Assembly: GCA_964396395.1 (NCBI GenBank)
Contig: CAYNFC010000007.1
Location: 299-64,298 of the forward strand
Length of the DNA stretch: 64,000 nucleotides
Reading direction: 5' to 3'
Origin: an uncultured Gammaproteobacteria bacterium
Lineage (GTDB): Bacteria; Patescibacteriota; Microgenomatia; UBA1406; GWC2-37-13
Numbering within the stretch: the stretch's first letter is position 1; each line of letters begins with the position of its first letter. Shown here in pieces: positions 2,213-55,709 of the stretch. The position numbers and the translations under genes are program-made. The notes under the pieces are model-generated. The model did not search any database. It was not told where the DNA came from and was given only the letters and a program-made list of their open reading frames with translations.

Positions 2213-3139
2213 ATGGATGGAGTTACCGATGCTCCCTTTCGTTATATTACCGATGTTTATGGAAAACCTGACATTATTTATACGGAGTTTATTTCTGTTA
2301 AAGGCTTAATACTTGGCAAACCAGCCATCAATCGCATGCTCCTTAAACACAAAACCGATACGTTTACTGTAGCTCAATTTTTTGGGACGGAGCCGGAATA
2401 TTTTTATCAGGCGGCACTAGTCGCCCTGGAAAAAGGATTTGACGGAGTTGATATTAATATGGGTTGTCCGGATAGAAGCGTCTTTAATCGGGGAGGAGGA
2501 GCAGGATTAATTTTACAACCAAAACTTGCTAAAGAAATTATTTTATCGGTCAAAAAGGCCGTCAAAGAAGGAATAAAAAAATTTAAAATAAAAAAAGATA
2601 TTACAGTTTCGGTCAAAACCAGAACCGGTTATAGGGAACATAAGACAAAAGAATGGATAAACAATTTGTTGGAGGCAGAGCCGGACGTTATTTGTATTCA
2701 TGCCCGGACTTTTGCCCAGAAATATTCGGGCCTAGCTGATTGGAGCCAAATAGGAATTTCAGCTGAAATAGCCAAAAAAACCAAGACAAAAATATTTGGC
2801 AATGGAGATATAAAAAGTCGATCTGCAGCATTGGATAAAATTAAAGAATATGATCTGGCTGGAGTTTTGATTGGTCGAGCGGCATTAGGGAATCCTTGGA
2901 TATTCAAAGGAGTAATTCCATCAACTGTTGAGAGATTCAAAGTATTATTGGAGCACTGCAAAAAATTTACAGAATTTTTTCCGTCAGCTGACCTAAGCAT
3001 TATGAGAAAACATTTGGCCTGGTATGTAAAGGATTTTTATCATGCCGCTGAAGTTAGGAACGAACTGATGCAGGTAAATAGTGTTGATGACGTGAAAAAA
3101 ATATTATCGAAAATTATCTCCTCCACGGTCGTAGCATAG
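2213..3139 (+). CDS. tRNA-dihydrouridine synthase
   Basis: 308-aa ORF starting MDGVTDAPFR, with GVDINMGCP. These are classic Dus motifs. The upstream in-frame GLAP is also Dus-like, but no ATG/GTG/TTG start is available there, so the N-terminus is uncertain. Confidence 0.85.
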   Translation: MDGVTDAPFRYITDVYGKPDIIYTEFISVKGLILGKPAINRMLLKHKTDTFTVAQFFGTEPEYFYQAALVALEKGFDGVDINMGCPDRSVFNRGGGAGLILQPKLAKEIILSVKKAVKEGIKKFKIKKDITVSVKTRTGYREHKTKEWINNLLEAEPDVICIHARTFAQKYSGLADWSQIGISAEIAKKTKTKIFGNGDIKSRSAALDKIKEYDLAGVLIGRAALGNPWIFKGVIPSTVERFKVLLEHCKKFTEFFPSADLSIMRKHLAWYVKDFYHAAEVRNELMQVNSVDDVKKILSKIISSTVVA

Positions 3140-3142
3140 ATA
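3115..3142. repeat. 28-bp palindromic site, copy 1
   Basis: TATCTCCTCCA-CGGTCG-TAGCATAGATA. Overlaps the dus stop codon. Forms a doublet with copy 2, 58 bp start to start. Confidence 0.7.
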
Positions 3143-3172
3143 GAGTTTGAAGTTTTTTAACAATAAAAACTC

Positions 3173-3200
3173 TATTTTAAAAACGGCCGTCGCATAGATA
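3173..3200. repeat. 28-bp palindromic site, copy 2
   Basis: TATTTTAAAAA-CGGCCG-TCGCATAGATA. The left arm is degenerate. The right arm is shared with copy 1. Confidence 0.6.
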
Positions 3201-3384
3201 GATTATTTGAATCTTACAAAACCTTTGTTGAGATTAATTCAGTATTCCATTAAGAAGAACTAGATTTTTACTCAAGTTAGGAATATTTTTTACTTAAAAC
3301 CCAAAAAACTTATTAGAATTTTCTTAATTCTTTTCACAATTTTATTTTACACCAATGTTTAATCTAATAAGTAATTCAAGAGAT

Positions 3385-3954
3385 CTATTTTCTCTTAAGG
3401 TAATATAAAATGTGGAGAAAGGGGATAATTCCTAAATTTTTATCTTTAAATTGACGGCTTTCTTCAATTTTAAATCCATGTTTTTTAAATATTTCTCTCC
3501 ACTCTTTATCTATTTTGTATGAGTTCCAAAAAGCATCCAACCTTAAATTTCCGATCGCATCTGAAATTACAGTAAATATTTTATTTACAGGACTTGTATA
3601 TGAAGTCTCAATTATTACTAACTCATCTGCTACCCGAGCGGCTTCTTTAAATACTAACTCAGGACTTGTTGTATGGTGTAAAACCATTAGTAATAATGCC
3701 GTATCAAACGATTTATTTTTAAAAGGAAGAATCTTACCATCATAGATAGTTGTTTTAACCAGTCTTAGTCCATGAAAATTACCAACGTCAACAGGTGTAA
3801 TTTTTTTACCCTTTTTTTGTAATAAATAAGCTACGTCACCAGTACCAGAACCAATATCAATAATTTTTTTGGACCCTTTTAAATAAGAGAAAATTCTTTG
3901 AACTACTATTTCCGATCGGCCTCTCACCAATTTTTGAATTATTGAACTTAACAT
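3385..3954 (-). CDS. class I SAM-dependent methyltransferase
   Basis: 189-aa ORF with motif I IIDIGSGTGDV and the post-I acidic residue (PVD). The LLLMVLHH region is typical of Methyltransf_11/25-like proteins. Confidence 0.75.
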   Translation of the reverse strand: MLSSIIQKLVRGRSEIVVQRIFSYLKGSKKIIDIGSGTGDVAYLLQKKGKKITPVDVGNFHGLRLVKTTIYDGKILPFKNKSFDTALLLMVLHHTTSPELVFKEAARVADELVIIETSYTSPVNKIFTVISDAIGNLRLDAFWNSYKIDKEWREIFKKHGFKIEESRQFKDKNLGIIPFLHILYYLKRK

Positions 3955-4026
3955 AAAGTAATAACATTATATTAAGATATTTATACCCTAGAATACAGGA
4001 AAAAAGTGATAAAGATATGAATAAAA

Positions 4027-4098
4027 TTATTTTTCCCACTTCGAAATGGAAAGGTCAACGCGATGACAGGGGACTTGGGGAGTGTTAGGATTATTTTT
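4027..4098 (-). pseudogene. internally deleted MGMT gene relic (copy B)
   Basis: Minus-strand reading gives KNNPNTPQVPCHRV-DLSISKWEK*. This is the MGMT active-site segment fused directly to the C-terminal tail. The deletion junction is the same as in relic A. Confidence 0.75.
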
Positions 4099-4742
4099 TA
4101 TAAAATAAAACGGCATGGGATTTTAATTTTCAATCGACCAATTCTCAGAAAAACATTATTTACAATATTATTTAACTTTTCTCTATCAACTATTTTTTTA
4201 AGTTGCTGTAAGTCAGATCTTCTTTGCTCAATATTTTTTCTTACGAAAAATCCCCAAGTTTTTAACCCAAAGCTATAAATACAATATAGAGTTTCTGGAG
4301 AAACGGTTTTTAAACTTATGCCTTCAAACGACGAGTCAATAACCCCACCGGAGGGAAAAGAAAATTTAATACTAGGGTATAATTCAACCAGAATCTCCTT
4401 TTTTAAGCCACCAAAATTAGAAGTCATTATTTCCAAATTTTTTCCATTTTTTTCAAATCGAAAATATTTTGACAGAGCTATTTTTTTAAGACGATTGTAA
4501 AAAGGAAATTTTTCATCAATAAAGGTATATTGTTCATAACCAAGTTTTAATAAATTATTTCTTATAATATCAAAATTTTTAATATCACAAATAATATCAA
4601 TATCTTTAATTTTTCTTTGATAACTATTTTTTATAAACGATAATAAAGACACTGAACCAATACAAAAATATTGCCGATCAGACGGAATTGAATCGATAAA
4701 ATCTCTTAAAGTAGAGGCAACCCATTTATTATCTAAATTCAT
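4098..4742 (-). CDS. hypothetical protein, possible minimal nucleotidyltransferase fold
   Basis: 214-aa ORF. IGSVSLL...KIKDIDIICD loosely fits the hG[GS]-x(n)-DhD pol-beta NTase signature. The stop codon lies inside MGMT relic B. Confidence 0.4.
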   Translation of the reverse strand: MNLDNKWVASTLRDFIDSIPSDRQYFCIGSVSLLSFIKNSYQRKIKDIDIICDIKNFDIIRNNLLKLGYEQYTFIDEKFPFYNRLKKIALSKYFRFEKNGKNLEIMTSNFGGLKKEILVELYPSIKFSFPSGGVIDSSFEGISLKTVSPETLYCIYSFGLKTWGFFVRKNIEQRRSDLQQLKKIVDREKLNNIVNNVFLRIGRLKIKIPCRFIL

Positions 4743-4789
4743 AAATCAATTTTACACCAACAAACAACACCCGGTGTTCAAAGCTATAT

Positions 4790-4817
4790 TATCTTGTAGA
4801 CGGCCGTCTTTAAGATA
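4790..4817. repeat. 28-bp palindromic site, copy 3
   Basis: TATCTTGTAGA-CGGCCG-TCTTTAAGATA. Lies 48 bp upstream of the 4742 start codon (minus strand). Confidence 0.8.
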
Positions 4818-4834
4818 ATAATTTAACAATAAAA

Positions 4835-4912
4835 TTATTTTTCCCACTTTGAAATAAAAAGATCGACCCGGTGGCAGGGGACGATGGGAGCATCAGGATT
4901 ATTTTTCAAAAA
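4835..4912 (-). pseudogene. internally deleted MGMT gene relic (copy A)
   Basis: Minus-strand reading gives FLKNNPDAPIVPCHRV-DLFISKWEK*. Nucleotide identity to 6412-6717 and 8292-8525 is clear across ...ggcaggggacgat.ggagcatcaggattattttt. Confidence 0.8.
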
Positions 4913-6086
4913 GAAAATACAGAAGCTTATCTACTATGTTTCTGATTGCAGCTGCTCCTTTGACTTCAGGTGGAGGACCTAATGAAGAATTTTGTGGAGG
5001 TAGGCCTTGGTTTTGCTGTTCTGGTGGAGGTCCTTGATCTGGGGGCGGACCCTGACGTTCTTGAGAATTTTCCAGAAGACGGAATTCTTCATTCCTTCTT
5101 TCCTGAGGATTAGGTGGTTGTCCCTCACCTTGGCATTTATCAGGATTATCTCGGCAGAATGTGTCGCGGGACTTTGGTGAGTTTGTAAAATCTTGTGGTT
5201 GACCACCACTAAATTGTTCTTTACACTTCTCGGGATTTTCTTTGCATAGTTTTTCCATTTCTTCTCGCTTTATTCCTTCTGGTGGTTTGCCTCGTTCTTC
5301 TTCTTTCCCTTCTGGGCCCGGTCCGAATTTTTGACATTCTGACGGATTTTTTTCACAGTATTCTTTACATGATGATTCACTATTGCATCCACCTGGTCCT
5401 TTAAATCCTTCTTGTGGCGGCCCACCACGGCGTTCTTGGCCTTCAGGCGGTTTGAATTTAGAACATTCATTAAAATTATCAGGACTGGAACAAAATGCTT
5501 TACAGGATTCTTCGGAATTACAACCACCAGGACCTCTTTTTTCTTCGCCTCCTTTCAATCCAGTTTGTTTGGCAAACTCTGAGCATTTTTGCCGATTCCC
5601 TTCCTGTTCACAGATTGATTTGCAGGTTTGGGGTGAATCACACCCTAGAATTTCTTTTGCTTTCGTAAGAATCTCCTGATTCTTTGGGCTCAATATTTGC
5701 TCTTTCACCAACCCTGTTTTTTTTGCAAAGTTGGTACATTTCTCAAAATTTTCCTCTTTTTCGCATATGTTTTTACATTCGGTTTCCGAACTACAACCCA
5801 GCTCTGTTTTTGCATGTGTTAATATCTCATCGGTTTTTCGTTCCTCATAAAATCCTTTTTGTTTGGCATACTGAATACAGGCGTCGCGATGAGTTTCGCC
5901 TTCACAATAGTTATGGCAGCTTGTATAGTCGGTACAGTTTCCGAGGCTTGTAATCGGATAGGTGATGCCATACTTTTTAGCAGCATCTTCATTTGTTGCC
6001 TGACCTTTTACTAATGGAGGCGGATAGAAAAAGAAAGCGGTAAATAATAAAAAAAGAAATAATTGACGGATTAATATGTGTTTCAT
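4899..6086 (-). CDS. secreted Cys-rich repeat protein with Pro/Gly/Gln/Glu-rich tail
   Basis: 395-aa ORF with an N-terminal hydrophobic signal (LFLFLLFTAFFF). It has at least five copies of a GC-x3-(S/E)C-x3-C-x6-8-C-x2-(F/Y)AK-type module. The C-terminus is low-complexity, and the last codons run into MGMT relic A. Confidence 0.7.
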   Translation of the reverse strand: MKHILIRQLFLFLLFTAFFFYPPPLVKGQATNEDAAKKYGITYPITSLGNCTDYTSCHNYCEGETHRDACIQYAKQKGFYEERKTDEILTHAKTELGCSSETECKNICEKEENFEKCTNFAKKTGLVKEQILSPKNQEILTKAKEILGCDSPQTCKSICEQEGNRQKCSEFAKQTGLKGGEEKRGPGGCNSEESCKAFCSSPDNFNECSKFKPPEGQERRGGPPQEGFKGPGGCNSESSCKEYCEKNPSECQKFGPGPEGKEEERGKPPEGIKREEMEKLCKENPEKCKEQFSGGQPQDFTNSPKSRDTFCRDNPDKCQGEGQPPNPQERRNEEFRLLENSQERQGPPPDQGPPPEQQNQGLPPQNSSLGPPPEVKGAAAIRNIVDKLLYFLFEK

Positions 6087-6424
6087 TTTAGATTGTCAAA
6101 TGGATTGGTATTTTTGGAAAACGGGTTTTGATACTGGGTTTTTTCGCTAAACGGATTTTCATATTTTGTCTCCATCGGAACATTCATTTTGTTTTCAACC
6201 TGAGTGGTTGGTGTTGGAGAATTTGTAAAAATAAATAACCCAACTACAATAAAAATAAGAAGTACAAATACTTCAATAACAAAAACTAGTTTTAAACGAC
6301 TGGGTTTTATTGGCTGAGTGATTGGTTGGGCAACGTCATCCACCATAGTACCACTATTACATAAATAAACGAAGTTGTCAATTGTCAAAATTTGTTTTTC
6401 TTTATCTTTAATTATTTTTTCCAC
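6083..6424 (-). CDS. single-pass membrane protein
   Basis: 113-aa ORF with one TM segment (LKLVFVIEVFVLLIFIVVGLFIF). It overlaps the upstream MGMT gene by 13 nt and the downstream gene by 4 nt (ATGA), suggesting translational coupling. Confidence 0.55.
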   Translation of the reverse strand: MEKIIKDKEKQILTIDNFVYLCNSGTMVDDVAQPITQPIKPSRLKLVFVIEVFVLLIFIVVGLFIFTNSPTPTTQVENKMNVPMETKYENPFSEKTQYQNPFSKNTNPFDNLK

Positions 6425-6717
6425 CCAGAAATGAAAAGATTAACTTTGTTATTTTTAAAACACACACCTTCTTTTAAAAGCATTTTTTTCTTTTGAGTAA
6501 TTCCTCCAATTCCCGAGTATCCGGTTAGTTTTCCGTCACTAGCGACGACTCGATAGCAGGGGACAATCGGGGCATCAGGATTATTTTTCATGAATGTTCC
6601 GACGGCCCGGGATGCTTTTGGTTTCCCGGCCAGCCCTGCCAGTTGACCATATGTGGCGACTTTACCTTCTGGAATAGAACGGCAGATTTTATAAACTTTT
6701 TCTTTAAATAAAGACAT
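6412..6717 (-). CDS. MGMT-family (methylated-DNA--protein-cysteine methyltransferase DNA-binding domain) protein, PCYR variant
   Basis: 101-aa ORF. VYKICRSIPEGKVATYGQLA...SRAVGTFMKNNPDAPIVPCYRVV is the MGMT C-terminal domain. The canonical PCHR reads PCYR here. Confidence 0.85.
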   Translation of the reverse strand: MSLFKEKVYKICRSIPEGKVATYGQLAGLAGKPKASRAVGTFMKNNPDAPIVPCYRVVASDGKLTGYSGIGGITQKKKMLLKEGVCFKNNKVNLFISGWKK

Positions 6718-6720
6718 ACA

Positions 6721-7227
6721 TTAATTAACCCTGTTTGTAAGTTTTGAGCGAAGTTCTCTGAAATAAAAAATGGCCTGACATACTTCTTTTGCCATTTCGT
6801 TTTCAGGATCAGTTTTGAGAGCTTTATTTACAAATAATAACGCCTGATTTTCATTTCCTTCTTTATTTTCAAGAACAGCCAAATCACATAATATTTGAAT
6901 ATCTTCAGGAAAAAGATGGTGAGCTTTTTTCATTAATTCCCTTCCAATATTTGGACTACCATTCATAAAATGAGTCCAACCTAAAAGATATAAAATTCTT
7001 GGATTGTTGGGAAGAAGTTTATCAGCTTTTGATAAAAAACTAATTGATTCAATAAACCGTTCTTGTTTACATAAGGCTTCTCCTAGAAGATAATAAGCCT
7101 CAGGATTTTTTTGATTAAATTTTATTGCTTGACGAAGTATCTTTTCTGCCTCTTCCCATCTTGCCAGTTCAAGACATTTATCCGCTTGTTTTATTAACTT
7201 TTTTACATTAGTTTTATTGTTTTTCAT
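6721..7227 (-). CDS. tetratricopeptide repeat protein
   Basis: 168-aa ORF with repeated WEEAEKILRQAIKFNQKNPEAYYLLGEAL-type 34-residue TPR units. Confidence 0.8.
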   Translation of the reverse strand: MKNNKTNVKKLIKQADKCLELARWEEAEKILRQAIKFNQKNPEAYYLLGEALCKQERFIESISFLSKADKLLPNNPRILYLLGWTHFMNGSPNIGRELMKKAHHLFPEDIQILCDLAVLENKEGNENQALLFVNKALKTDPENEMAKEVCQAIFYFRELRSKLTNRVN

Positions 7228-7235
7228 GACAAAAC

Positions 7236-8270
7236 TTACTTTTTATTTAAAATATAATATGATCCTTTACTTTTTCCCTTCATCATAATTAAGTCATGTT
7301 TTATCAGTTTTTTAAAATCAAGATGTCTAGTTGCTCGTGCTCTTTTAACTAATTTTGAATACTGACGATCGGTAATAAATCCTTTTTGTTTTATAGATTC
7401 CAAAATCTTCAAATGGTATGGTTGTAGTTGGGTTTTGGGACTTATTGCTTGTTGAGGAAGCAACTTTTCAACTCGTAGCAATTCATCGATAATTCCATCA
7501 GTAAAATATTCAAGCCATAAAGTAAAATCGACTGTTGGATATATATCATAATAATTTCCCCTGACTCCAACCATTTCAAAATATTTAGTGACGTTTTTGT
7601 TATAGTAATTTTCAAAGCTAAACAGATTAAAAGTATCTAATCCCATTTCGGCCAGAAGTATTTTGGTTGCCAGTCGGGTTGTTCTTCCGTTTCCATCCAT
7701 AAAAGGATGAATGATAACCATTTGCTTATGAAAAATACCAGCCAATATTAATGGGTCAATAATATTTTTATTTGATTTTACAAAATTAACAAGATCTGTA
7801 ATGAGTTTTTGGACATCTTTATGATCAGGCGGCCAATAAATGGTTTTTTGCGATTGCGGATCATTGACAAAGACAGCGTCTTGACGAAATTGTCCGGACT
7901 GAAATGTTGGGAGAAGTTTATGGGTTACTTTTTCTTGAATTGTTAAGATAAAATCAAGATTAAAAATAATAATTTCTTTTTCAAGCTTTATATTAATTTC
8001 TTTTAATATTTCGTTGTAGTTTAATACTTCCTGCTCACTCTCACGGATATTTTGAGGCCTTGTTTTTAGTATCTCTTTAACATTAGTTAGCGGGAGCGGA
8101 TTGCCTTCAATGCTGGTTGAGGCATAAGTAGAGATTTCCTCTGCATTTCTTTGCAATTCTGCTAAAACCACATGGGGAAAACGGTGTAAATTAAGATCGT
8201 TGACAAGTTCGTTGATTCGCTTAATATTTGCAAGTAATTTATTCGTAATAGTGTATTTTGGTTTAAACAT
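7236..8270 (-). CDS. Fic family protein with C-terminal winged-helix region
   Basis: 344-aa ORF containing the Fic motif HPFMDGNGRTTR (HxFx[DE]GNGRxxR). Confidence 0.9.
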   Translation of the reverse strand: MFKPKYTITNKLLANIKRINELVNDLNLHRFPHVVLAELQRNAEEISTYASTSIEGNPLPLTNVKEILKTRPQNIRESEQEVLNYNEILKEINIKLEKEIIIFNLDFILTIQEKVTHKLLPTFQSGQFRQDAVFVNDPQSQKTIYWPPDHKDVQKLITDLVNFVKSNKNIIDPLILAGIFHKQMVIIHPFMDGNGRTTRLATKILLAEMGLDTFNLFSFENYYNKNVTKYFEMVGVRGNYYDIYPTVDFTLWLEYFTDGIIDELLRVEKLLPQQAISPKTQLQPYHLKILESIKQKGFITDRQYSKLVKRARATRHLDFKKLIKHDLIMMKGKSKGSYYILNKK

Positions 8271-8291
8271 TAGACATATTATAGACGAATA

Positions 8292-8525
8292 TTAGACAAA
8301 AGTAAAGACTGATTTTTTATTTCTTCTGAGTAATTCCACCATTCCGTTACTGGCAACGACTCGGTGGCAGGGGACGATCGGAGCATCAGGATTATTTTTC
8401 ATGAAAGAACCAACAGCCCGGGCAGCTTTTGGTTTCCCAGCCAATCTGGCAATCTGTCCATAAGTAACGACTTTTCCTTTCGGAATGGAACGGCAGATTT
8501 TATAAACTTTTTCTTTGAAATTCAT
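8292..8525 (-). pseudogene. truncated/frameshifted MGMT-family gene
   Basis: 77-aa ORF identical in pattern to 6412-6717 up to PCHRVVASNG. A short deletion relative to the full copy (loss of the KLTGYSGI-equivalent codons) then shifts the frame. GGITQKK is still visible out of frame. Confidence 0.7.
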
Positions 8526-14706: not shown

Positions 14707-15438
14707 ATGCATAAATTATTATCAATCGGACAAACCGCCGAACTATTAGGTGTATCTATTGATACTCTCAGACGATGGGATTCTGCCGGCCGTTTACGCT
14801 CCATCCGCAGTGGCCCAAGAGGTCATCGGTTTTATAATAGGTCAGACATTGATCAATATCTGCAAGAAATTGACACCATAGCTTTAAATTGGGCAAAATC
14901 TACCAATCCAACCGTGCCTAACACTGATGTTTACTGCCAAACTCGTGATGTATTTCAAGCCAGACTGGAAAAATTTCAATCAGAGTTAAGTAAAATCGTA
15001 TCAATTAAAATAGTTTCTTTAATTACGGCAGTTGCCGGCGAGATTGGAAATAATTCATTTGATCATAATTTGGGAAATTGGTCAGATATTCCCGGTATTT
15101 TTTTCTCATATGCTATCAGAAATAGGAAAGTAGTATTAGCAGATCGTGGTCAAGGCATATTGACAACATTGAAGAGAGTACGCACAGAACTGGTAAATTC
15201 TAGTGAAGCAATGAAAGTGGCATTTACTGAAAAAATATCCGGAAGATATCCAGAAATGAGAGGAAATGGGTTGAAGTTTGTAAGATCAATTATTGTGGAA
15301 AATCCATTTTCAATACATTTTCAAACAGGAAATGCTCAGCTATACTTAAAAAAGGATGACGTTGAACTAAATATTCAACAAACTAACACAATTATTCAAG
15401 GATGTTTTGCGCTTATAAGTTTTGAAGAGTTGATATGA
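14707..15438 (+). CDS. MerR/excisionase-type HTH fused to a GHKL (SpoIIAB/RsbW-like) ATPase domain
   Basis: 243-aa ORF. N-terminal LLSIGQTAELLGVSIDTLRRWDSAGRL is an HTH_17/MerR helix-turn-helix. The C-terminal part carries an N-box (GEIGNNSFDHN), G1 (ADRGQGI) and G2-like (RGNGLKF) motifs of histidine-kinase-like ATPases. Confidence 0.7.
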   Translation: MHKLLSIGQTAELLGVSIDTLRRWDSAGRLRSIRSGPRGHRFYNRSDIDQYLQEIDTIALNWAKSTNPTVPNTDVYCQTRDVFQARLEKFQSELSKIVSIKIVSLITAVAGEIGNNSFDHNLGNWSDIPGIFFSYAIRNRKVVLADRGQGILTTLKRVRTELVNSSEAMKVAFTEKISGRYPEMRGNGLKFVRSIIVENPFSIHFQTGNAQLYLKKDDVELNIQQTNTIIQGCFALISFEELI

Positions 15439-20093: not shown

Positions 20094-20121
20094 TATCTTG
20101 TCGACGATCGTCTATAAGATA
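20094..20121. repeat. 28-bp palindromic site, copy 4
   Basis: TATCTTGTCGA-CGATCG-TCTATAAGATA. Confidence 0.8.
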
Positions 20122-20278: not shown

Positions 20279-20306
20279 TATCTTGTGGACGATCGTACAT
20301 AAGATA
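20279..20306. repeat. 28-bp palindromic site, copy 5
   Basis: TATCTTGTGGA-CGATCG-TACATAAGATA. It ends 18 nt before the 20325 ATG, and its right edge runs into an ATAATT -10-like box. Confidence 0.8.
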
Positions 20307-20324: not shown

Positions 20325-20912
20325 ATGGAAGAAAAGGAAATTAAGTTAAAACGGGGACAGTTATATTGGCATATCTTGGAGATCATAGGTCTAACTTTGA
20401 TATCGGCTGGCAATCCGCTTCGCCCAGTTATTCCTTTAGCCATAAAAGAAATTATTAAAACTCTTAAAGAAGTCAAAAATCTAAACGTTGAAGAAGAAAA
20501 AATTAAAAGAAGTTTAAAAAGCTTAGAGAGAAAAGAAATTATTGATCTAGAAGAAAAAGGTAATGAAGTTTTTGTCAGATTAAAAGATAAGAATAATTTA
20601 ACAGTAATAAAATATTCAACGAAAGCACTTTTAGATTTCAAAAGGAAAGAAAAAAATTGGAACGGCAAATGGTTTTTAGTTTTCTTTGATGTTCCAGAAA
20701 TTCAAAGGAATAAAAGAAATTATTTAAGAAAATTTCTCGTAGATATAGGATTTCATCAATATCAAAAAAGTATTTACATCTTTCCCTATGAATGCGAAAA
20801 GGAAATAGCACTGATTAAGAAAATTGTCGAGGGGGCAAAATATATGAAATATATAATTGCAGAAAAAATAGAGGACGAAAAAACAGTAAAATCTTTCTTC
20901 AAATTAGGATAA
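20325..20912 (+). CDS. PaaX-family-like regulator with Cas2/VapD-fold-like C-terminal half
   Basis: The ORF track starts at 20283, but an ATG at 20325 (MEEKEIKLKRG) is preferred. The N-terminal half is winged-helix-like. The C-terminal KWFLVFFDVPE...R..LRKFL.DIGFHQYQKSIYIFP matches the PaaX_C/Cas2-like beta-alpha-beta-beta-alpha-beta signature. Confidence 0.55.
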   Translation: MEEKEIKLKRGQLYWHILEIIGLTLISAGNPLRPVIPLAIKEIIKTLKEVKNLNVEEEKIKRSLKSLERKEIIDLEEKGNEVFVRLKDKNNLTVIKYSTKALLDFKRKEKNWNGKWFLVFFDVPEIQRNKRNYLRKFLVDIGFHQYQKSIYIFPYECEKEIALIKKIVEGAKYMKYIIAEKIEDEKTVKSFFKLG

Positions 20913-20954
20913 TAATATTATCTTCAATTTTTTTTTATGTTATTAGTAATAATG

Positions 20955-20982
20955 TATCTTGTAGACGACCGTCTTGAAGATA
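20955..20982. repeat. 28-bp palindromic site, copy 6
   Basis: TATCTTGTAGA-CGACCG-TCTTGAAGATA. Lies 43 nt downstream of the 20912 stop. Confidence 0.8.
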
Positions 20983-31760: not shown

Positions 31761-31788
31761 TATCTTATGGACGGCCGTCTTGAAGATA
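31761..31788. repeat. 28-bp palindromic site, copy 7
   Basis: TATCTTATGGA-CGGCCG-TCTTGAAGATA, 17 nt upstream of a TTGCAT box. Confidence 0.8.
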
Positions 31789-36561: not shown

Positions 36562-36562
36562 A

Positions 36563-38528: not shown

Positions 38529-38533
38529 AAAGC

Positions 38534-39655: not shown

Positions 39656-39824
39656 AAGTTTTAAGCTCGGTATCGAAAATTTTTTGACGGAAGAAATTAA
39701 ACCGCAAAAAATTTGATACTTTCGCTTAACACAATTTACTAAAAGCGCAGATACCTATTTTTGAGACAATCGCTTGGGGCCCCTTTGGGGTGAAGCGGTC
39801 GAAAAAATACAGTATCAAGCTTTT
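39656..39824 (-). other. structured intergenic spacer with terminal inverted repeats and GC-rich hairpin
   Basis: The ends are imperfectly complementary (aagctcggtatcgaaaattttttgac / gtcgaaaaaatacagtatcaagctt). The internal hairpin cgcttGGGGcccctttGGGGtgaagcg stands out in AT-rich DNA. Confidence 0.4.
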
Positions 39825-41623: not shown

Positions 41624-41740
41624 AGTTAATAATTTAGAATGTCAAAGCTCGCCACTGAATTTTATTTCTCCGTGGGAACCCTCCCCAAGGGAGCTCCCAA
41701 GTCGAAAAAAATTAAGCGTCTCGCTTTTGCTATCTTTAAT
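41624..41740 (-). other. structured intergenic spacer (purL-purQ) related to 39656-39824
   Basis: It shares the gtcgaaaaaa(a)t..a.g..tc..gctttt end and has a GC-rich hairpin (gggaaccCTCCCcaaGGGAGctccc). The ends aaagctcgccactgaatttta / taatttttttcgac..gcgagacgctt are imperfectly inverted. Confidence 0.35.
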
Positions 41741-44623: not shown

Positions 44624-45905
44624 ATTTATCGCCAAATAATAATCCTTTTCTCCCAATATCACGTCGGTATTGCATACCTTTAAAATGAACAGCTTTTTTT
44701 CCAATATATTGGTAAGCTTTTTTGATAGTTTCTTCTAGGGCTGATCCTGTTGCGGTAACGGACAAAACCCGACCACTATTGGTAACAATTTTTTTATCTA
44801 CTTCTTTGGTACCGGCGTGAAAAACTTGAATATCTTTATCATTAACTTTATCTAATCCGATTATCTGATCTCCTTTTTTATATTCTCCTGGGTAACCCGC
44901 GGATGTGAGAACCACGCCAACAGAAAAACCTTTTTTGAAAACTAACCCCTTCTTTTTTAACTGTTTTTTTTGTTGGGCGAGAAAAATTTCGACTAAATCG
45001 GATTCAAGGCTCATCATCAAGGGTTGGGTTTCCGGATCCCCAAAACGACAGTTATATTCCAGAACCTTTGGTCCTTCGCGAGTCAAGATTAAACCTGGGT
45101 AAAGAATCCCTTGATAAAGACAACCTTCTTTTGCCATTCCTTTAATTGTTGGAGCAACAATTTCCTTTTCAATCTGCTTAATAAGTTTTCCATCAACAAA
45201 AGGAACCGGTGTATAAGCCCCCATACCTCCGGTATTGGGACCCCGGTCACTGTCAAGAAGTCTTTTATGATCCTGAGAGGTTGAAAAAGATTGAAAATCT
45301 TTTCCATCAGTAATAACCATAAAAGAAATTTCCTGACCATAAAGACACTCTTCAATAATTATTTTTTCCCCGGACTTTCCAAAAATTTTATCAATGATTA
45401 ATTGTTTTAAAAATATCTCAGCTTCCTTTTTACTTTTACAAACAGCCACTCCTTTTCCTAGACAAAGACCATCGGCTTTAATAACGACGGGATATTTAGT
45501 ATGTTCCAAATGTTTTTTAGCTTGATCAAAATTATCAAAAGAATAATACTGAGCGGTTGGAATTTTATATTTTTTCATTAATTGTTTGGCAAAAATTTTA
45601 GAACTTTCGATTTGGCTGGCACATTTTGAAGGGCCGATAATTTTGAGACTTTCTTTTCTAAAAACATCAGCAATTCCTAAAGTTAAAGGAATTTCCGGGC
45701 CAACGACCGTTAGATCAATTTTATTTTCCTTAGTGAATTTTAATAATTTATTAATATCAGTTATCTCAATTGAAACGTTTTCTCCAATTTTTTTTGTACC
45801 GGGATTGCCGGGGGCAAAATAAATTTTGGTTACAAGAGGAGACTGTTTAATTTTCCAACCCAACGCATGTTCTCGTCCTCCGGAACCAATAATTAAGATT
45901 TTCAT
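44616..45905 (-). CDS. purD: phosphoribosylamine--glycine ligase
   Basis: 429-aa ORF. KILIIGSGGREHAL, ATP-grasp motifs and GGMGAYTP. Confidence 0.95.
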   Translation of the reverse strand: MKILIIGSGGREHALGWKIKQSPLVTKIYFAPGNPGTKKIGENVSIEITDINKLLKFTKENKIDLTVVGPEIPLTLGIADVFRKESLKIIGPSKCASQIESSKIFAKQLMKKYKIPTAQYYSFDNFDQAKKHLEHTKYPVVIKADGLCLGKGVAVCKSKKEAEIFLKQLIIDKIFGKSGEKIIIEECLYGQEISFMVITDGKDFQSFSTSQDHKRLLDSDRGPNTGGMGAYTPVPFVDGKLIKQIEKEIVAPTIKGMAKEGCLYQGILYPGLILTREGPKVLEYNCRFGDPETQPLMMSLESDLVEIFLAQQKKQLKKKGLVFKKGFSVGVVLTSAGYPGEYKKGDQIIGLDKVNDKDIQVFHAGTKEVDKKIVTNSGRVLSVTATGSALEETIKKAYQYIGKKAVHFKGMQYRRDIGRKGLLFGDKYD

Positions 45906-45906
45906 A

Positions 45907-46506
45907 TTAATTACACAACTTCATTAATGACTCAACGTAAATTTGATTTTCTTTTTTCTTTAATCTTTCATAAAGACTTTTTACCGTATCATTGGGTAAA
46001 ATTTTTTCAAAGCAACGGGCAAGAACCGGTCCGAAATCAAATTCTTGACTTAAAAAATGGACAGTTGAACCGGCATAAGTAGCATGATAGTTTAAAAAAT
46101 TTTGGATAGCAAAGTCAGTCAATTTTCTCCGGTTCCAAAGTCCCGAAGAGCCATCCGGATTATGAACGGCTCCGTCCATTGTATCGGGAATAAGTCCAGG
46201 ATGAAGATTAAGAATTTTATTTTTAAATGTATTTATTAAAGACTGAGGAATAATTAATTTCCATCCGGCCAAAACAATTAAATCAACTTGATGGTCCTTA
46301 AATATTTTTTCTAAATCGTTTTTTTTGTTTACAACCATTGTAGTAATATTATTTTTTTTTGCCCTTTGTAAACCATATGCATTCTCAGAACTACTGACAA
46401 CTAAAACAATTTTCGCCCCTAATTTTTTATTTTCAATCGCGTCAATAATAGCCTGGAGATTAGTACCTGTTCCGGCATCGGAAATTAAAATTACTAGTTT
46501 TTTCAT
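45907..46506 (-). CDS. purN: phosphoribosylglycinamide formyltransferase
   Basis: The start is taken at MKKLVILISDAGTGTNLQAIIDA (46506). LAGW and NLHPGLIP are present (the NxHPSLLP equivalent). Confidence 0.85.
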   Translation of the reverse strand: MKKLVILISDAGTGTNLQAIIDAIENKKLGAKIVLVVSSSENAYGLQRAKKNNITTMVVNKKNDLEKIFKDHQVDLIVLAGWKLIIPQSLINTFKNKILNLHPGLIPDTMDGAVHNPDGSSGLWNRRKLTDFAIQNFLNYHATYAGSTVHFLSQEFDFGPVLARCFEKILPNDTVKSLYERLKKKENQIYVESLMKLCN

Positions 46507-46525
46507 ATTTCGACTCCGCTCACTA

Positions 46526-47950
46526 TTAACTAATTGTTTCAAAAACATCTTTTCTAAAACCACCTTCAACCTGCATTGGATATCTACCTGTAAAACAAGA
46601 ATCACAAAGTTTGTTTGATTTGATTCTTGAAGCTTTTCTTAATCCATCCAAACTTAAGTAGGCCAAAGAGTCGGCCCCGATGAATTTTTCAATTTCGTTC
46701 ATCTTCATCCGGGAAGCGATCAATAGTTTTTTATCGGGAGTATCAATACCAAAATAACAAGGATCAGTGACCGGGGGAGAACAAACACGGACATGAACTT
46801 TTTTAACTCCGCAGTTTTTCAACATCTTAATTATTTTTTTAATTGTCGTTCCCCGGACAATTGAGTCATCAACAATAATAATTCTTTTTCCTTTGACAAT
46901 TTCTTTTAAGGGATTAAATTTTATTCTCACACCCATCTCTCGGATATGTTGTTCCGGTTGGATAAAAGTCCGACCGATGTATCTGTTTTTGATAAGAACC
47001 TCACCGTAAGGAATTCCGGAGGCTTTCGAATAACCGATGGCGGCTGATGTCCCCGAGTCGGGAACAGCAACCACTAAATCAGCACAAACAGGAGACTCGT
47101 AAGCCAGCATTTCTCCTGATCTTTGTCTAACCTGATGAACTAACTGTTTACCAAATATACTATCAGGACGAGCTAAGTATACATATTCGAAAAGACAGAA
47201 GCTTTTCTTTACCGATTTTATTTTTCCGGCAATATGTACCCCTGCTTCATTAATAACAAGTACTTCGCCGGGTGCAATCTCTCTGATAAATTTCGCTCCG
47301 ACTGTATCCAAAGCACAGGTTTCGGAACAGACAATATATGAAGAATCATTTAATCGGCCCAAAACCAAAGGCCGGAAACCATATGTATCCCTGAAAGCAA
47401 TTAATTTGTCTTTAGTCAATGCAATCATGCTGAAAGCACCCTGAAATTTTTTAAAAGAAGAAAGGATTTTTTCTTCCCAATTTTGACCTGTTGAATTTTT
47501 TATTATCCAACCCATAATTTCCGTATCACTGGTTGAAGCGAGTTTAATGTTTGAGGGGAGTTGATGGACTAATTTCATTGCATTAATAATATTACCATTA
47601 TGTGCCAAAGCGAAATCTTCGTTTTTAGAATTTATAACCACAGGTTGAACATTGCACAATTTATTGCCTCCGGTTGTTGAATAGCGTGTGTGAGCAATAG
47701 CAGCAAAACCTTTAAGAGAATTTATTTTTTTTTCATCAAAAACAGAAGAAACCAAACCTAATCCTTTAACGCTTTTTAATTTTTTTCCATCGGCAACTGT
47801 AATGCCGGCCCCTTCCTGCCCACGGTGCTGGAGACTGTATAAACCAAAAAAACTAATTCGGGCCACGTCGATTTCTTTGCCATAAATTCCAAAAATTCCG
47901 CATTTGTCTTTGAGAGATTCTTGTTGTTTGAGCTTGTTTATATTAATCAT
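46526..47950 (-). CDS. purF: amidophosphoribosyltransferase
   Basis: The start is taken at ATG 47950 (MININKL...), preceded by AGGTGG 13 nt upstream. The ORF track begins at a TTG (47977). CGIFGIYG (Ntn Cys), HRGQEGAGI and the PRPP loop IIVDDSIVRGTT are present. Confidence 0.9.
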   Translation of the reverse strand: MININKLKQQESLKDKCGIFGIYGKEIDVARISFFGLYSLQHRGQEGAGITVADGKKLKSVKGLGLVSSVFDEKKINSLKGFAAIAHTRYSTTGGNKLCNVQPVVINSKNEDFALAHNGNIINAMKLVHQLPSNIKLASTSDTEIMGWIIKNSTGQNWEEKILSSFKKFQGAFSMIALTKDKLIAFRDTYGFRPLVLGRLNDSSYIVCSETCALDTVGAKFIREIAPGEVLVINEAGVHIAGKIKSVKKSFCLFEYVYLARPDSIFGKQLVHQVRQRSGEMLAYESPVCADLVVAVPDSGTSAAIGYSKASGIPYGEVLIKNRYIGRTFIQPEQHIREMGVRIKFNPLKEIVKGKRIIIVDDSIVRGTTIKKIIKMLKNCGVKKVHVRVCSPPVTDPCYFGIDTPDKKLLIASRMKMNEIEKFIGADSLAYLSLDGLRKASRIKSNKLCDSCFTGRYPMQVEGGFRKDVFETIS

Positions 47951-48219: not shown

Positions 48220-48247
48220 TATCTATACGACGGTCGTCTCTAAGATA
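48220..48247. repeat. 28-bp palindromic site, copy 8
   Basis: TATCTATACGA-CGGTCG-TCTCTAAGATA, 18 nt upstream of the pur promoter -35. Confidence 0.8.
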
Positions 48248-48277: not shown

Positions 48278-48305
48278 TATCTATACTACGGCCGTGAGAA
48301 AGATA
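48278..48305. repeat. 28-bp palindromic site, copy 9
   Basis: TATCTATACTA-CGGCCG-TGAGAAAGATA, 58 bp start to start from copy 8. Confidence 0.7.
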
Positions 48306-49240: not shown

Positions 49241-49282
49241 TCAAAAGAATTAATCGTAGTTTTACTTCTGGACAATATTCTT

Positions 49283-49313
49283 GTCATCCCCGTGAAGACG
49301 GGGATCCAGTCTA
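49283..49313. repeat. GC-rich REP-like hairpin element
   Basis: GTCATCCCCGTgaagACGGGGATCcagtcta. Inverted relative to the neighbouring copy at 49336. Confidence 0.8.
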
Positions 49314-49335
49314 TCAATTCAATTATGGTAATTTT

Positions 49336-49365
49336 AGTCTGGATTCCCGCCTACGCGGGAATGAC
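49336..49365. repeat. GC-rich REP-like hairpin element
   Basis: agtctggATTCCCGCctacGCGGGAATgac. Together with 49283 it forms a composite inverted repeat between convergent genes. Confidence 0.8.
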
Positions 49366-53836: not shown

Positions 53837-54694
53837 TTAAACTTTAAAAATAAACTTTCCATCTTTTGTTGCCACGTATCCTCCCACAGGATTTGAAAAA
53901 TGCGATCCAAGTAAAAGCAAATTTGTATTTGCTAAAAATTGAAGCATTTTTTTTCTCGTTTTAAAGGCTTGGTTAGGATAAATATCAACTGTATTTCCCC
54001 ATTCTGGTTTTTCTACTTGGCAAGGGTGATAAATAAAATCACCTGAGATAAGTGCTTTTTCTCCTTCTGATTCTATAAGAACGCTTACATGCGACGGTGT
54101 ATGGCCTGGGGTTGGTATCAAGCTGATATTTTCATCAAATACAAAAGTATCATCAACTAGTTCTGCTAAACCCGCATTAATAATAGGCTGCACAGAATCT
54201 TCTATTCCAAGTAAATCATCAATCATTTCTTTTTTAGGTTTACTGCTCCAATACTCAAATTCTTTTTTTGAAAATATATACTTTGCATTGGGAAATGTTG
54301 GTATCCATTTCCCATTAACTAAAATAGTATTCCACCCAACATGGTCAAAATGTAGATGAGTGCATACAACATAGTTAATATCTGACAGAGTTATTCCGAT
54401 TTGATTAAGCTTTTCAATAAATTTTATTTTTAAATTTGCCCATTCAGGTAGACTTGGTCGATTTTTATCATTCCCGTTACAAGTATCAACTAAAATATAT
54501 TTACCATTAAACTTAATTAAAAAGCTTTGAACTAATGCTTTTAATATCCCATTTTCATCTGCATAATTTGGAATTAACCATTTCATTTTTTTTACATTCT
54601 CAAGAGTTGCATCGGGCATAATATTTTGGATAATTTTTCCCGCTTCAAGTTCAATGATTTGAAAAATCTCAACATTCCCAACTGACCATTTCAT
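53837..54694 (-). CDS. MBL-fold metallo-hydrolase
   Basis: The start is taken at MKWSVGNVE (54694). The ORF track extension to 54832 runs through palindrome copy 10. THLHFDHVGW (HxHxDH) and a downstream GHTPSH are present. Confidence 0.8.
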   Translation of the reverse strand: MKWSVGNVEIFQIIELEAGKIIQNIMPDATLENVKKMKWLIPNYADENGILKALVQSFLIKFNGKYILVDTCNGNDKNRPSLPEWANLKIKFIEKLNQIGITLSDINYVVCTHLHFDHVGWNTILVNGKWIPTFPNAKYIFSKKEFEYWSSKPKKEMIDDLLGIEDSVQPIINAGLAELVDDTFVFDENISLIPTPGHTPSHVSVLIESEGEKALISGDFIYHPCQVEKPEWGNTVDIYPNQAFKTRKKMLQFLANTNLLLLGSHFSNPVGGYVATKDGKFIFKV

Positions 54695-54727
54695 ATAAAT
54701 ATTATACAAAATAATATTTAAATTTTT

Positions 54728-54755
54728 TATCTTATCGACGGCCGTCCACAAGATA
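54728..54755. repeat. 28-bp palindromic site, copy 10
   Basis: TATCTTATCGA-CGGCCG-TCCACAAGATA. It differs from copy 11 at only 2 of 28 positions. Confidence 0.85.
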
Positions 54756-54809
54756 ACTATTGCCAAAGAAATACTTCCATTTTTACCATGATTATTGATA
54801 AAATATAGT

Positions 54810-55064
54810 ATGACAGTTAATAGTATTATCAAGAATAAGCCTTATTTGGCGTGGTATGTAAAAGATCCGGAAAATCTTTCGGAGGAGTCTGTTTTGGAAC
54901 ATGTATTAAACTACGGAAATTGGGATGATGTCCAACAATTCATTAGAATTAAAGGTAAGGATAAAACCGCCATATTATTTAAGAAAACCCTGACAAACAA
55001 AAGAACGAATTATCAACCGGCAGTTCAGTCTTATTTTTTCCGTTATTTTAATCATCGCGCATGA
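54810..55064 (+). CDS. small protein paired with an AbiEii-like nucleotidyltransferase (putative antitoxin partner)
   Basis: The ATG at 54810 is preferred over the TTG at 54795. ...WYVKDPENLSEESVLEHVLNYGNWDDVQQFI resembles the small partner proteins found upstream of AbiEii-type NTases. Its stop overlaps the next start (ATGA). Confidence 0.5.
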   Translation: MTVNSIIKNKPYLAWYVKDPENLSEESVLEHVLNYGNWDDVQQFIRIKGKDKTAILFKKTLTNKRTNYQPAVQSYFFRYFNHRA

Positions 55065-55669
55065 ATAAACAAATATTTAATAACGATCAGGAACAACTAC
55101 TTCCTTTTATAAAATTATTTTTATCGAATTTTTATCTTGTAGGAGGTACGGCAATAGCCCTTCATTTAGGACATAGAAGATCTATTGATTTTGATTTATT
55201 TACAGATAATATATTTGATCCTATGAAGATACGTAATAAAATAATGCAAGATAAAACTATCAATCATACTTTTTCTCAGGGAACTGGTGAATTAACAGTC
55301 CTTATTGATAAAGTTAAAATAACTTTTTTCCATTATCCATTTATTATCCAAAGAAATATTATGTTTGAACAAACATTAAAACTTCCTGACTTAATTACAC
55401 TTGGCGCCATGAAAGCATTTGCCCTTGGAAGACGGGCTAAATGGAAAGATTATATTGATTTATATTTTATTTTTCAAAAGCATTCATTTCAAGAATTAAT
55501 TGTTAAAACAAATAGTATCTTTAAAGCCGAATTTAATGAAAAATTATTTCGTACCCAGCTTAGTTATTTTGATGATATTGATTACTCCGAGCAAATTGAA
55601 TACATGGATGGGTTTGAAAAAAACGATGAAAATATAAAGCAATTTCTTGAAAAAATAAGTCTTTCCTAA
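55061..55669 (+). CDS. nucleotidyltransferase AbiEii/AbiGii toxin family protein
   Basis: 202-aa ORF. FYLVGGTAIALHLGHRRSIDFDLFT is the family hallmark (GGTAL..HR.S.DlDfF). Confidence 0.75.
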   Translation: MNKQIFNNDQEQLLPFIKLFLSNFYLVGGTAIALHLGHRRSIDFDLFTDNIFDPMKIRNKIMQDKTINHTFSQGTGELTVLIDKVKITFFHYPFIIQRNIMFEQTLKLPDLITLGAMKAFALGRRAKWKDYIDLYFIFQKHSFQELIVKTNSIFKAEFNEKLFRTQLSYFDDIDYSEQIEYMDGFEKNDENIKQFLEKISLS

Positions 55670-55681
55670 TTAATTGTTGTT

Positions 55682-55709
55682 TATCTTATCGACGACCGTC
55701 TACAAGATA
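55682..55709. repeat. 28-bp palindromic site, copy 11
   Basis: TATCTTATCGA-CGACCG-TCTACAAGATA, 13 nt after the 55669 stop. Confidence 0.85.

Follow-up and report, generated by a model that had tools for sequence, protein, structure and literature searches.

The 64,000-nucleotide stretch analysed here, positions 299 to 64,298 of contig CAYNFC010000007.1 and hereafter called the window, carries dispersed copies of a 28-bp palindrome, and several of them stand around the gene of a small protein that we name mini-PaaX, in which a winged helix-turn-helix (wHTH) is followed by a Cas2-like domain. Our results revealed that the palindrome brackets this gene both here and throughout the Candidate Phyla Radiation (CPR), and we infer that the palindromes are probably the binding sites of mini-PaaX itself. 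As a site for a dimeric transcription factor, one of the two roles offered in the first-pass annotation of this sequence, the palindrome is strongly supported; the candidate binder, which that annotation had overlooked, is encoded in the same window, at 20325-20912. The name mini-PaaX denotes the DNA-binding and dimerisation core of PaaX without its effector domain. In the literature we found no description either of this motif or of wHTH-Cas2 proteins in CPR bacteria.

Anatomy of the palindrome

Searching the window with the pattern TATCT-N6-CGRYCG-N6-AGATA, at most two mismatches being allowed, gives 12 copies (Table 1), while 0.02 are expected per 64-kb window from 100 dinucleotide-preserving shuffles, and the consensus across these copies is TATCT-N5-ACGRYCGT-N5-AGATA. 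The motif is real and, as previously judged, its copy number is far from chance: each of the 11 loci that had been read by eye fits the pattern with no or one mismatch, and a twelfth, absent from that list and with one mismatch, lies at 61300-61327. Non-coding DNA makes up 12% of the window and holds at least 10 of the 12 copies (P = 4e-8). The intergenic bias noticed earlier is thus genuine, but the statement that all copies are intergenic has to be relaxed for the copy at 3115, which overlaps the end of DusB, and for that at 61300, which lies inside an open reading frame (ORF). Likewise the statement that no strict copy falls within a coding sequence applies to this window only, since roughly one in two copies sampled in relatives lies inside a gene.

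The anatomy of the site was examined in 146 distinct copies pooled from the window and related genomes. The copies of the relatives were chosen by a pattern fixing positions 1-5, 11-13, 16-18 and 24-28, and therefore only the remaining positions are informative for variation. Next to the fixed blocks, namely TATCT (1-5), A-C-G (11-13), R-Y, C-G-T (16-18) and AGATA (24-28), position 6 is mainly T, positions 7-9 are almost free, and positions 10/19 come in two flavours, GACG..CGTC and CACG..CGTG. Accordingly, of the blocks formerly described as conserved, the outer TATCT/AGATA and the CG-rich core stand, but the inner G/C at 10/19 varies. The asymmetry of the core had also been suggested to encode polarity, for which we found no support; direct orientation fits the flanking copies better in 17 loci and inverted orientation in 11, a difference that is not significant.

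Whether such a palindrome works as RNA or as DNA can be judged from its arms. Complementary covariation is absent at the pairs 6/23, 7/22 and 8/21 (z = 0.45, -1.5 and -0.25), in agreement with the earlier remark that the variable arm positions are not complementary, and is present at 10/19 (z = 9.3) and 9/20 (z = 3.2). It is highly improbable that the copies are RNA hairpins serving as intrinsic terminators or processing sites. Some of them do fold well (down to -9.3 kcal/mol, z = -4.2), several lie just past stop codons, and the covariation at 10/19 would suit a stem; however, 10/19 is non-complementary in 36% of copies, the folding energy changes from copy to copy (-9.3 to -1.2 kcal/mol in the window, with 4 of the 8 window copies tested folding no better than shuffles), no T-run follows the window copies, and none of the copies matches Rfam. 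Moreover, separate GC-rich hairpins probably serve as terminators beside copies (31685-31728 and 21024-21047), and the distal copy at the mini-PaaX gene is upstream of the promoter. An RNA family or terminator was rejected on the lack of an Rfam match, of conserved folding and of arm covariation. Because the arms do not covary, the folding is variable and T-runs are missing, and because separate GC-rich hairpins adjoin several copies, the site is kept as duplex DNA with a protein-contact pattern, as the first-pass annotation had argued.

Two close pairs, 3115/3173 and 48220/48278, are each exactly 58 bp apart. In relatives the pair spacing ranges from 37 to 73 bp, so that it is not fixed, and a constant 58-bp period or miniature CRISPR array was rejected.

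The mini-PaaX protein

The second domain of mini-PaaX is recognised by the Pfam profile PF20803 PaaX_M, 'PaaX central Cas2-like domain' (E = 3.5e-19, 69 bits vs a cutoff of 24), and Cas2 profiles match the protein weakly. In the AlphaFold2 model, with a predicted local distance difference test score (pLDDT) of 84.7, the chain runs from an N-terminal helix through the wHTH and a long linker helix to a beta-alpha-beta-beta-alpha-beta domain. The best whole-chain matches in Foldseek are E. coli PaaX 8a39 (E = 5e-5), M. tuberculosis Rv0674 and a PaaX-like regulator of Jannaschia, and Cas2 dimers and wHTH repressors come lower in the list. By sequence, genuine Cas2 matches the Cas2-like domain more closely (phmmer E = 0.008) than PaaX does (E = 0.49); the alignment of the domain with genuine Cas2 covers the beta1 segment 'VFFDvP', whose aspartate, D122, aligns with the catalytic Asp of Cas2, and the segment 'QKSvY'. 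No match to the PaaX_C effector domain is found in mini-PaaX, whose chain ends after the Cas2-like domain. Relatives of the protein fall into 1,013 clusters at 50% identity (E <= 1e-10). Apart from mini-PaaX, a single DNA-binding regulator was seen in the window, of the MerR type (14707-15438), and no copy of the palindrome lies near its gene.

The likeness to PaaX repressors (E. coli PaaX 8a39 and Rv0674, 3kfw) extends from the protein, a winged helix and then a Cas2-like domain in both cases, to the DNA, as PaaX operators are also dyad-symmetric with widely spaced outer blocks and lie at the regulator's own promoter region. The differences are that mini-PaaX has 195 residues without a C-terminal effector domain, that ORF scans detected no paa genes in the window and hence no phenylacetate genes nearby, and that its sites are found on both sides of the gene and number tens per genome, some of them intragenic.

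The mini-PaaX locus in Roizmanbacteria

In the window, the mini-PaaX gene is ringed by the copies 20094, 20279 and 20955 together with a probable decayed copy at 20919, regarded as such because its position and left arm match intact copies in two relatives, L002:10593 and L005:10599 (TATCTTGAATGCGG...; loci of relatives are cited by such numbers where they need to be told apart). A consensus scan predicts a promoter on the plus strand, with the -35 box TGGACA at 20186-20191, a 17-nt spacer and the -10 box TATAAA at 20209-20214, and the two upstream copies flank the predicted transcription start, near 20221, at -127 to -100 and +58 to +85. Between the distal copy and the -35 box there is a near-invariant 75-nt element that opens with an extra half-site, TATCTATCGATA (20122-20133), and that may act as an UP element, as a second operator or as a small RNA. 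L066 has a similar element (4454-4561) adjoining a copy that precedes a small, unrelated gene. The layout is shared by 11 aligned Roizmanbacteria upstream regions, where the distal copy is followed by the 75-nt element ending in TTGACA, 17 nt and TATAAC or TATAAA, and then by about 40 nt, the proximal copy, 18 nt and the ATG.

The first relatives were contigs with homologues 75-86% identical, fetched without regard to the motif. They have a copy 18-20 nt before the ATG and one or two just past the stop codon, and this bracketing is kept where the neighbouring genes are unrelated to those of the window. A scan by a stricter pattern, with one genome per species, gave at least 109 loci; among the 109 listed, nearly all belong to Roizmanbacteria-like metagenome-assembled genomes (MAGs), and about 11 are singletons from unrelated taxa, which is the number predicted by chance. 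Eleven of the listed loci contain the mini-PaaX gene, and it is bracketed in 11/11. In the window and in 14/14 other Roizmanbacteria loci, a copy lies 10-20 nt before the ATG and one or two copies lie 3-70 nt past the stop codon. As to the naming of these genomes, L008, L011, L012, L016, L022 and others are titled 'uncultured Gammaproteobacteria bacterium' (third party annotation, TPA), with about 33% G+C. Such motif-rich MAGs carry close Roizmanbacteria orthologues including mini-PaaX, and their titles look wrong.

Table 1. Copies of the palindrome and associated features in the window
Feature	Position	Strand	Remarks
Site copy	3115..3142		TATCTCCTCCACGGTCGTAGCATAGATA; degenerate arms; overlaps the last 25 nt and the stop of the DusB ORF (2213-3139)
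Site copy	3173..3200		TATTTTAAAAACGGCCGTCGCATAGATA; 1 mismatch; between convergent DusB and methyltransferase genes
Site copy	4790..4817		47 bp before the ATG of gene 4098-4742 (-)
Distal site of the mini-PaaX locus	20094..20121		29 bp upstream of the divergent SemiSWEET ATG
Near-invariant 75-nt element	20122-20191	+	…ACTTTTGTAGGTTATAAGCGGTGGACA; between the distal copy and the mini-PaaX -35
Proximal site	20279..20306		In the leader, downstream of the predicted promoter; 18 nt before the mini-PaaX ATG
mini-PaaX gene	20325..20912	+	195 aa; N-terminal wHTH and C-terminal Cas2-like (PaaX_M) domain
Probable decayed copy	20919..20946		TATCTTCAATTTTTTTTTATGTTATTAG; 6 nt past the mini-PaaX stop codon
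Downstream site of the mini-PaaX locus	20955..20982		42 nt past the stop; before the GC-rich hairpin ending the convergent PAP2 gene
Site copy	31761..31788		86 bp before ORF 31875-32990; follows purM and a GC-rich hairpin
Site copy	48220..48247		Divergent region, purF (-) / alpha/beta hydrolase (+)
Site copy	48278..48305		95 bp upstream of the hydrolase ATG
Site copy	54728..54755		Divergent region; 33 bp before a metallo-beta-lactamase-fold ATG, 54 bp before ORF 54810
Site copy	55682..55709		12 nt past the AbiEii-like stop codon
Intragenic copy	61300..61327		1 mismatch; in frame (Y-L-N-D-G-R-L-L-V) in ORF 60289-61992 (567 codons)

Bracketing in distant CPR homologues

The same arrangement is met far beyond Roizmanbacteria. 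For example, a Saccharibacteria homologue that is 27% identical (L034) has TATCTTTTTCACGATCGTGAAAAAGATA both 17 nt before the ATG and 24 nt past the stop codon, and the position of the proximal site is also kept in the Saccharibacteria loci L034/L116. A distant set of 80 metagenomic loci was gathered via an alignment led by the Saccharibacteria protein (31-47% identity to it), and about 58 of the 80 carry a CGRYCG-centred 28-mer on each side of the gene, no more than 170 bp away. The arms vary between lineages and match across the two sides of one gene, as in ACACTTTAGTACGATCGTACTAAAGTGT, AGCATATCGTCCGATCGGACGATATGCT, ACAAACTCGCGCGGCCGCGCTAGTTTGT and TATAAAAACCGCGGCCGCGGTTTTTATA; in several of the other loci there are matching palindromes whose centre is CTATAG or CGTACG instead. 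The density of symmetric CGRYCG 28-mers is 3.5 per kb beside the gene vs 0.05 elsewhere in these loci, a 69-fold difference. Because about 58 of the 80 distant loci carry matched flanking palindromes, at a density far above that of the rest, bracketing by a cognate palindrome is a family-wide trait, and the physical linkage of the motif to this gene family is universal. In many distant lineages the 28-bp palindromes are perfect (14/14), and in L193, L154, L150 and L123 the copies on the two sides of the gene agree throughout, the asymmetric arm positions included.

Further lineage-matched copies are rare in the distant loci, with 7 in 203 kb. In Roizmanbacteria, the density outside the mini-PaaX locus goes from 9 copies in 63 kb in the window to 1 in about 58 kb in L002, L003 and L005. 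Dense dispersal is an elaboration of Roizmanbacteria, and it is variable even inside that group.

Dispersed copies inside and between genes

Among the loci listed, 67 of the 137 classifiable Roizmanbacteria copies lie deep in long ORFs, and the other half falls into the roughly 10% of sequence that is intergenic, where the density is about 8-fold higher; the preference for intergenic over coding DNA thus holds in these loci, though so many copies are intragenic. The latter occur in all three phases, phase 0 being dominant and encoding Y-L-x-x-[DG]-R-x-x-D. In orthologues of different species, independently retrieved, the copy is found at the same codon position with the flanking protein conserved, and the residues at the free positions change radically, as in YLTHDRGQD, YLVDGRLQD and YLMDDRRID at one orthologous site. 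Such copies persist at orthologous positions across proteins 55-80% identical; in the window, the intragenic copy 61300 is matched by a degenerate one at the corresponding codon of the L002 orthologue of its ORF. An orthologue without the motif (L009) has the same length there, and TatD shows no 28-30-nt insert. The intragenic copies are not insertions, since the motif-free orthologue is unchanged in length. The motif is selectively maintained at the level of DNA, the intragenic copies being held by constraint, or by drive, on the DNA.

The intragenic copies are no nearer to the next outward gene start than random positions in the same genes, and the idea that they are embedded promoter operators for the next gene was rejected on these distances. 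Of the 30 intergenic copies off the mini-PaaX locus, 14 lie in tandem, 11 in divergent and 5 in convergent regions, vs 395, 124 and 92 such regions in the background. Of these copies, 25/30 are in regions with a gene start, and 21/36 site-to-start distances are at most 100 bp, so promoter-proximal binding fits many intergenic copies, not all. A purine regulon with a PurR-like box, suggested by the copies close to purF and purM, was considered and rejected, as other copies adjoin unrelated genes and the purF-adjacent ones lie in a segment absent from L041. The purine gene set itself is near-complete (34716-47950 and 30549-31658), comprising purF, PurL with a GATase_5 subunit, SAICAR synthetase, AIR carboxylase, adenylosuccinate lyase, purM and two DUF1297/ATP-grasp PurP-like genes. 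To our knowledge, CPR bacteria are usually described as lacking nucleotide synthesis, which makes this set notable.

A motif spread over genes in such a manner might owe its abundance to a genome-wide molecular drive with no function at single sites, for instance a bias of uptake or a methylation-linked short-patch repair acting on CGRYCG. It would resemble the uptake signal sequence (USS) of Haemophilus, the DNA uptake sequence (DUS) of Neisseria and the cyanobacterial highly iterated palindrome HIP1, which are likewise clade-specific over-represented motifs found in all ORF frames and at orthologous positions. Besides being clade-specific, the copies are intergenic-enriched yet abundant in ORFs, and variable peptides are tolerated; the core also includes CGATCG, which is the centre of HIP1. 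Dinucleotide shuffles predict 14 bare CGRYCG and 8 CGYRCG in the window, where 54 and 4, respectively, are observed. However, the 42 occurrences outside the 12 palindromes show no trace of arm sequence, and under an order-4 Markov model the excess of CGRYCG is a modest 1.1-1.5 fold, in a data set selected for the motif. The 28-bp dyad site is longer than USS, DUS or HIP1, it is tied to the gene of one DNA-binding protein, and its density is far below that of USS/DUS, at about 1 per 5 kb and down to the 1 in about 58 kb off the locus given above. Such a drive also leaves unexplained why one gene family is bracketed in every CPR lineage with lineage-specific arms, and we consider it very unlikely. 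As for the excess of CGRYCG in itself, it may be due to codon context or to a methylation- or repair-linked bias; restriction avoidance or a VSP-like drive on the hexamer was considered too, and we give it no more weight than a side remark.

Another view starts from the repetitive extragenic palindromic (REP) sequences and their REP-associated tyrosine transposases (RAYT): the copies would be selfish or domesticated repeats, the progeny of a system in which a wHTH Cas2-fold nuclease disperses or maintains them. In fact the architecture is that of a REPtron, with a single-copy gene between its own palindromic repeats, a repeat sequence specific to the lineage of the gene, and dispersed copies enriched between genes and at rearrangement junctions. 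The retained aspartate of VFFDvP, the perfect palindromes, which exceed what a dimer needs, an information content beyond the need of a regulator, and the homogenised copies of some lineages all speak in the same direction. Nevertheless the flanked gene codes for a wHTH and a Cas2-like domain and not for an IS200/IS605-like HUH/Y1 transposase, and PaaX, its closest structural relative, is a plain repressor. The variation is concentrated at positions 6-10/19-23, a protein-contact pattern that points to selection on contact positions and not to copy-paste decay; the intragenic copies (67/137) sit at conserved positions without insertion, and dispersed copies are rare outside Roizmanbacteria. All in all an origin of the REP/RAYT type seems quite unlikely.

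Module edges and synteny

Comparison with related genomes shows several segments whose ends coincide with copies. In L085, DusB is followed by one copy and then by the orthologue of gene 4899-6086, while in the window DusB is followed by copies 3115 and 3173, a 1.65-kb methyltransferase and nucleotidyltransferase segment that is absent in L085, copy 4790 as the right end of that segment, and gene 4899; the two blastn alignments between the window and L085 meet inside the copy. The copy at the 3' end of DusB is also found in L085 and L018. In L112 the left flank of copy 4790 is common with the window and the right flank is different. The window, L063 and L066 have in common an anchor made of purM, a hairpin and a copy, past which the cargo differs, being in the window a purine nucleoside phosphorylase-like gene (ORF 31875-32990); here copy 31761 is orthologous to L063:3774, with identical arms and a central GC vs AT in L063. 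The segment with copies 48220 and 48278 and the hydrolase gene is absent in L041, and a two-gene AbiEii-type module is flanked by copy 54728 on the left and copy 55682 on the right, which differ at 2/28 positions when compared in direct orientation. In three comparisons the homology breakpoint of an indel falls exactly on a copy.

On the whole, copies are present at 11/71 non-collinear vs 8/171 collinear junctions (about 3-fold), and 16/19 site-bearing junctions are 'never conserved' vs 263/510 of the others (p = 0.005). With gaps of at least 60 bp only, the latter contrast becomes 16/19 vs 129/214 (p = 0.048), and 85% of the non-collinear junctions have no copy. Some segments between copies are present or absent among related genomes, with breakpoints on copies; most indels involve no copy.

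These observations bear upon the proposal, also made in the first-pass annotation, that the palindrome is a dif-type recombination site. In a wider form, the copies would be recombination sites, whether dif/pdif-like, attC-like or of a new type served by the Cas2-like protein, that delimit exchangeable modules including the mini-PaaX gene. With Xer/dif and pdif the palindrome shares its 28-bp 11-6-11 geometry and some breakpoints inside a copy, and the AbiEii pair, the methyltransferase and nucleotidyltransferase segment and the mini-PaaX gene are flanked by copies like pdif modules. The changing cargo behind the purM anchor, a SoFic defence gene in a variable island, the enrichment at non-collinear and never-conserved junctions, and flanking copies that are identical at asymmetric positions in some lineages are further points in its favour. 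But the enrichment is left marginal by the control for gap length, and most non-collinear junctions go without a copy. Tyrosine-recombinase strand exchange needs matching centres, and the central dinucleotides mismatch both between module flanks (20279 AT vs 20955 AC; 54728 GC vs 55682 AC) and between orthologous copies. From lineage to lineage it is the arms that vary around a fixed centre, the opposite of what Xer sites show, and there are many copies per genome. As stated earlier, no recombinase is seen in the window, neither a recombinase (tyrosine recombinases included) nor a transposase being found among about 60 ORFs scanned. Copies conserved in housekeeping ORFs such as TatD would be hazardous targets, and near-identical pairs are also non-adjacent, such as 4790 and 20955, which differ at 2/28 positions. 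Hence of the dif-type proposal the geometry and some breakpoints remain, and recombination sites are on balance an unlikely explanation. Stalling or breakage at a tightly bound protein could also make the copies prone to rearrangement.

The surroundings have a mosaic character of their own. A hypervariable island downstream of DusB (3140-8525) differs in every related genome compared and contains the methyltransferase, the nucleotidyltransferase-like gene, a TPR protein, MGMT DNA-binding-domain fragments and a Fic/SoFic defence protein. Direct repeats lie at the 3' ends of successive island genes (D4, 4020-4109 and 4828-4917), on both sides of the purine nucleoside phosphorylase-like gene (D5, 31796-31834 and 32991-33029) and in duplicated MGMT-domain gene fragments (D2, 6531-6708 and 8342-8519), and together they suggest a cassette-like mosaic structure. 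Two repeat families of about 45-53 nt form GC-rich hairpins, namely D3 with ATTCCCGCCTACGCGGGAAT (20996-21048, 37090-37142 and 49313-49365) and D8 with CATCCCCGTGAAGACGGGGATC (31685-31728 and 49281-49324). Their elements often adjoin a 28-bp copy at gene ends, and they are likely to be terminators or another mobile repeat.

A proposed role for mini-PaaX

Taking the palindromes as binding sites of mini-PaaX, a dimer or higher oligomer of the protein would bind the double-stranded 28-bp site, with the two winged helices reading the outer arms, that is TATCT/AGATA plus lineage-specific bases, and with the central ACG-RY-CGT on the dyad lying under the Cas2-like dimer; both sets of contacts are predicted from the layout of site and protein. 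At its own gene the promoter lies between two copies, of which the proximal one falls in the leader, and the stop codon is followed by additional ones; autorepression is therefore suggested. It would act by roadblock and/or looping, and the protein would also insulate the gene from its neighbours. Autoregulation is accordingly the best-supported function that we can infer. In Roizmanbacteria the site would have multiplied, to about 1 per 5 kb in this window, with dispersed copies 20-100 bp before some starts, at gene ends, at the edges of accessory or defence modules and inside ORFs. Because of this multiplication across the genome, mini-PaaX may act genome-wide as a DNA-binding factor, either as a global repressor or roadblock or as a nucleoid-organising protein. 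The copies scattered off the locus, those inside genes included, may conceivably serve global repression or roadblock, organise the nucleoid, mark module boundaries or result from a selfish drive. In this respect the sites are similar to those of ParB/parS, Noc with its binding sites (NBS) and WhiA, where tens of palindromic sites are also often intragenic and conserved; moreover parS can lie in parB, that is, a cis site at or in the protein's own gene, and WhiA also pairs a nuclease-derived fold with a helix-turn-helix. Mini-PaaX differs from them in having no ParB, CTPase or LAGLIDADG domain.

Several observations weigh against mini-PaaX being simply the regulator that binds these sites. The linkage of gene and palindrome could just as well mean that the copies act in cis to move the gene. 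Conserved neighbours are seen for the mini-PaaX gene in about 6% of pairwise comparisons vs 52% for other genes. Since the intragenic half of the relatives' copies is unrelated to gene starts, a promoter-operator regulon explains at most half of the copies, and among the 30 off-locus intergenic copies the 5 between convergent genes are a further difficulty. The identity of flanking copies at asymmetric positions is unexpected for independent operators and therefore hints at homogenisation or recent duplication. The similarity of the arms tracks that of the wHTH weakly (partial r = 0.10, p = 0.008) and no better than that of the Cas2-like domain, so that this covariation was set aside as a proof of direct read-out, being not discriminating. 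Finally, the site carries far more information than a regulator would require in a genome of about 1 Mb.

In view of these points, one may also think of the wHTH-Cas2 protein as the active part of an unrecognised repeat system of CPR bacteria, in which the Cas2-fold dimer would nick, or assist integration, at CGRYCG, although we hold this to be rather improbable. The copies would then be attachment or duplication sites that bracket the gene and other modules and that are propagated and homogenised, which we take as equally doubtful, and so is the further step of a REPtron-like or proto-CRISPR-like unit, with Cas2 but without Cas1 and with repeats flanking an inserted segment. With CRISPR-Cas2 there are in common a Cas2-fold protein, a 28-bp partly palindromic repeat and two pairs of copies with 30-bp spacers. 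The differences are that no Cas1 was found in the window, that there is no array, that the spacing changes in relatives and that the copies differ in sequence.

Other features of the window

The window has a G+C content of 30-39% and contains three tRNAs, a lone 5S rRNA and housekeeping genes such as TypA, DusB and the purine biosynthesis cluster. The close homologues of its proteins are named Candidatus Roizmanbacteria or Patescibacteria, and because of these names we assign the window to a CPR bacterium, a Candidatus Roizmanbacteria. The 5S rRNA gene (59396-59512, minus strand; Rfam, 80 bits) has no 16S or 23S gene with it within the window. A gene for a stand-alone GIY-YIG nuclease domain of 83 residues (56978-57229, minus strand) adjoins tRNA-Gln (57242-57313, minus strand). 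Two tandem 66-nt repeats (73% identical) at 29615-29746 encode a lysine/glutamate-rich repeat inside ORF 29494-30246, for which there is no Pfam match.

Implications

The genomes of CPR bacteria are tiny and encode few regulators that can be recognised, and genetics is lacking for these organisms. If the binder is confirmed, mini-PaaX would be a candidate master DNA-binding factor for this group, offering a testable pair of a 28-bp site and a 195-residue protein. The family to which it belongs, of about 1,000 clusters misannotated as 'Cas2', is set between copies of its own lineage-specific palindrome, and in Roizmanbacteria ORFs the DNA signal overrides the protein sequence, which is unusual for a transcription-factor site. 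At a practical level, the motif can be used as a marker to bin and annotate Roizmanbacteria contigs. More generally, that a Cas2 fold is found together with 28-bp repeats and defence-module edges is relevant to the origins of Cas2 and of repeat recognition, as well as to how streamlined genomes slot in accessory genes.

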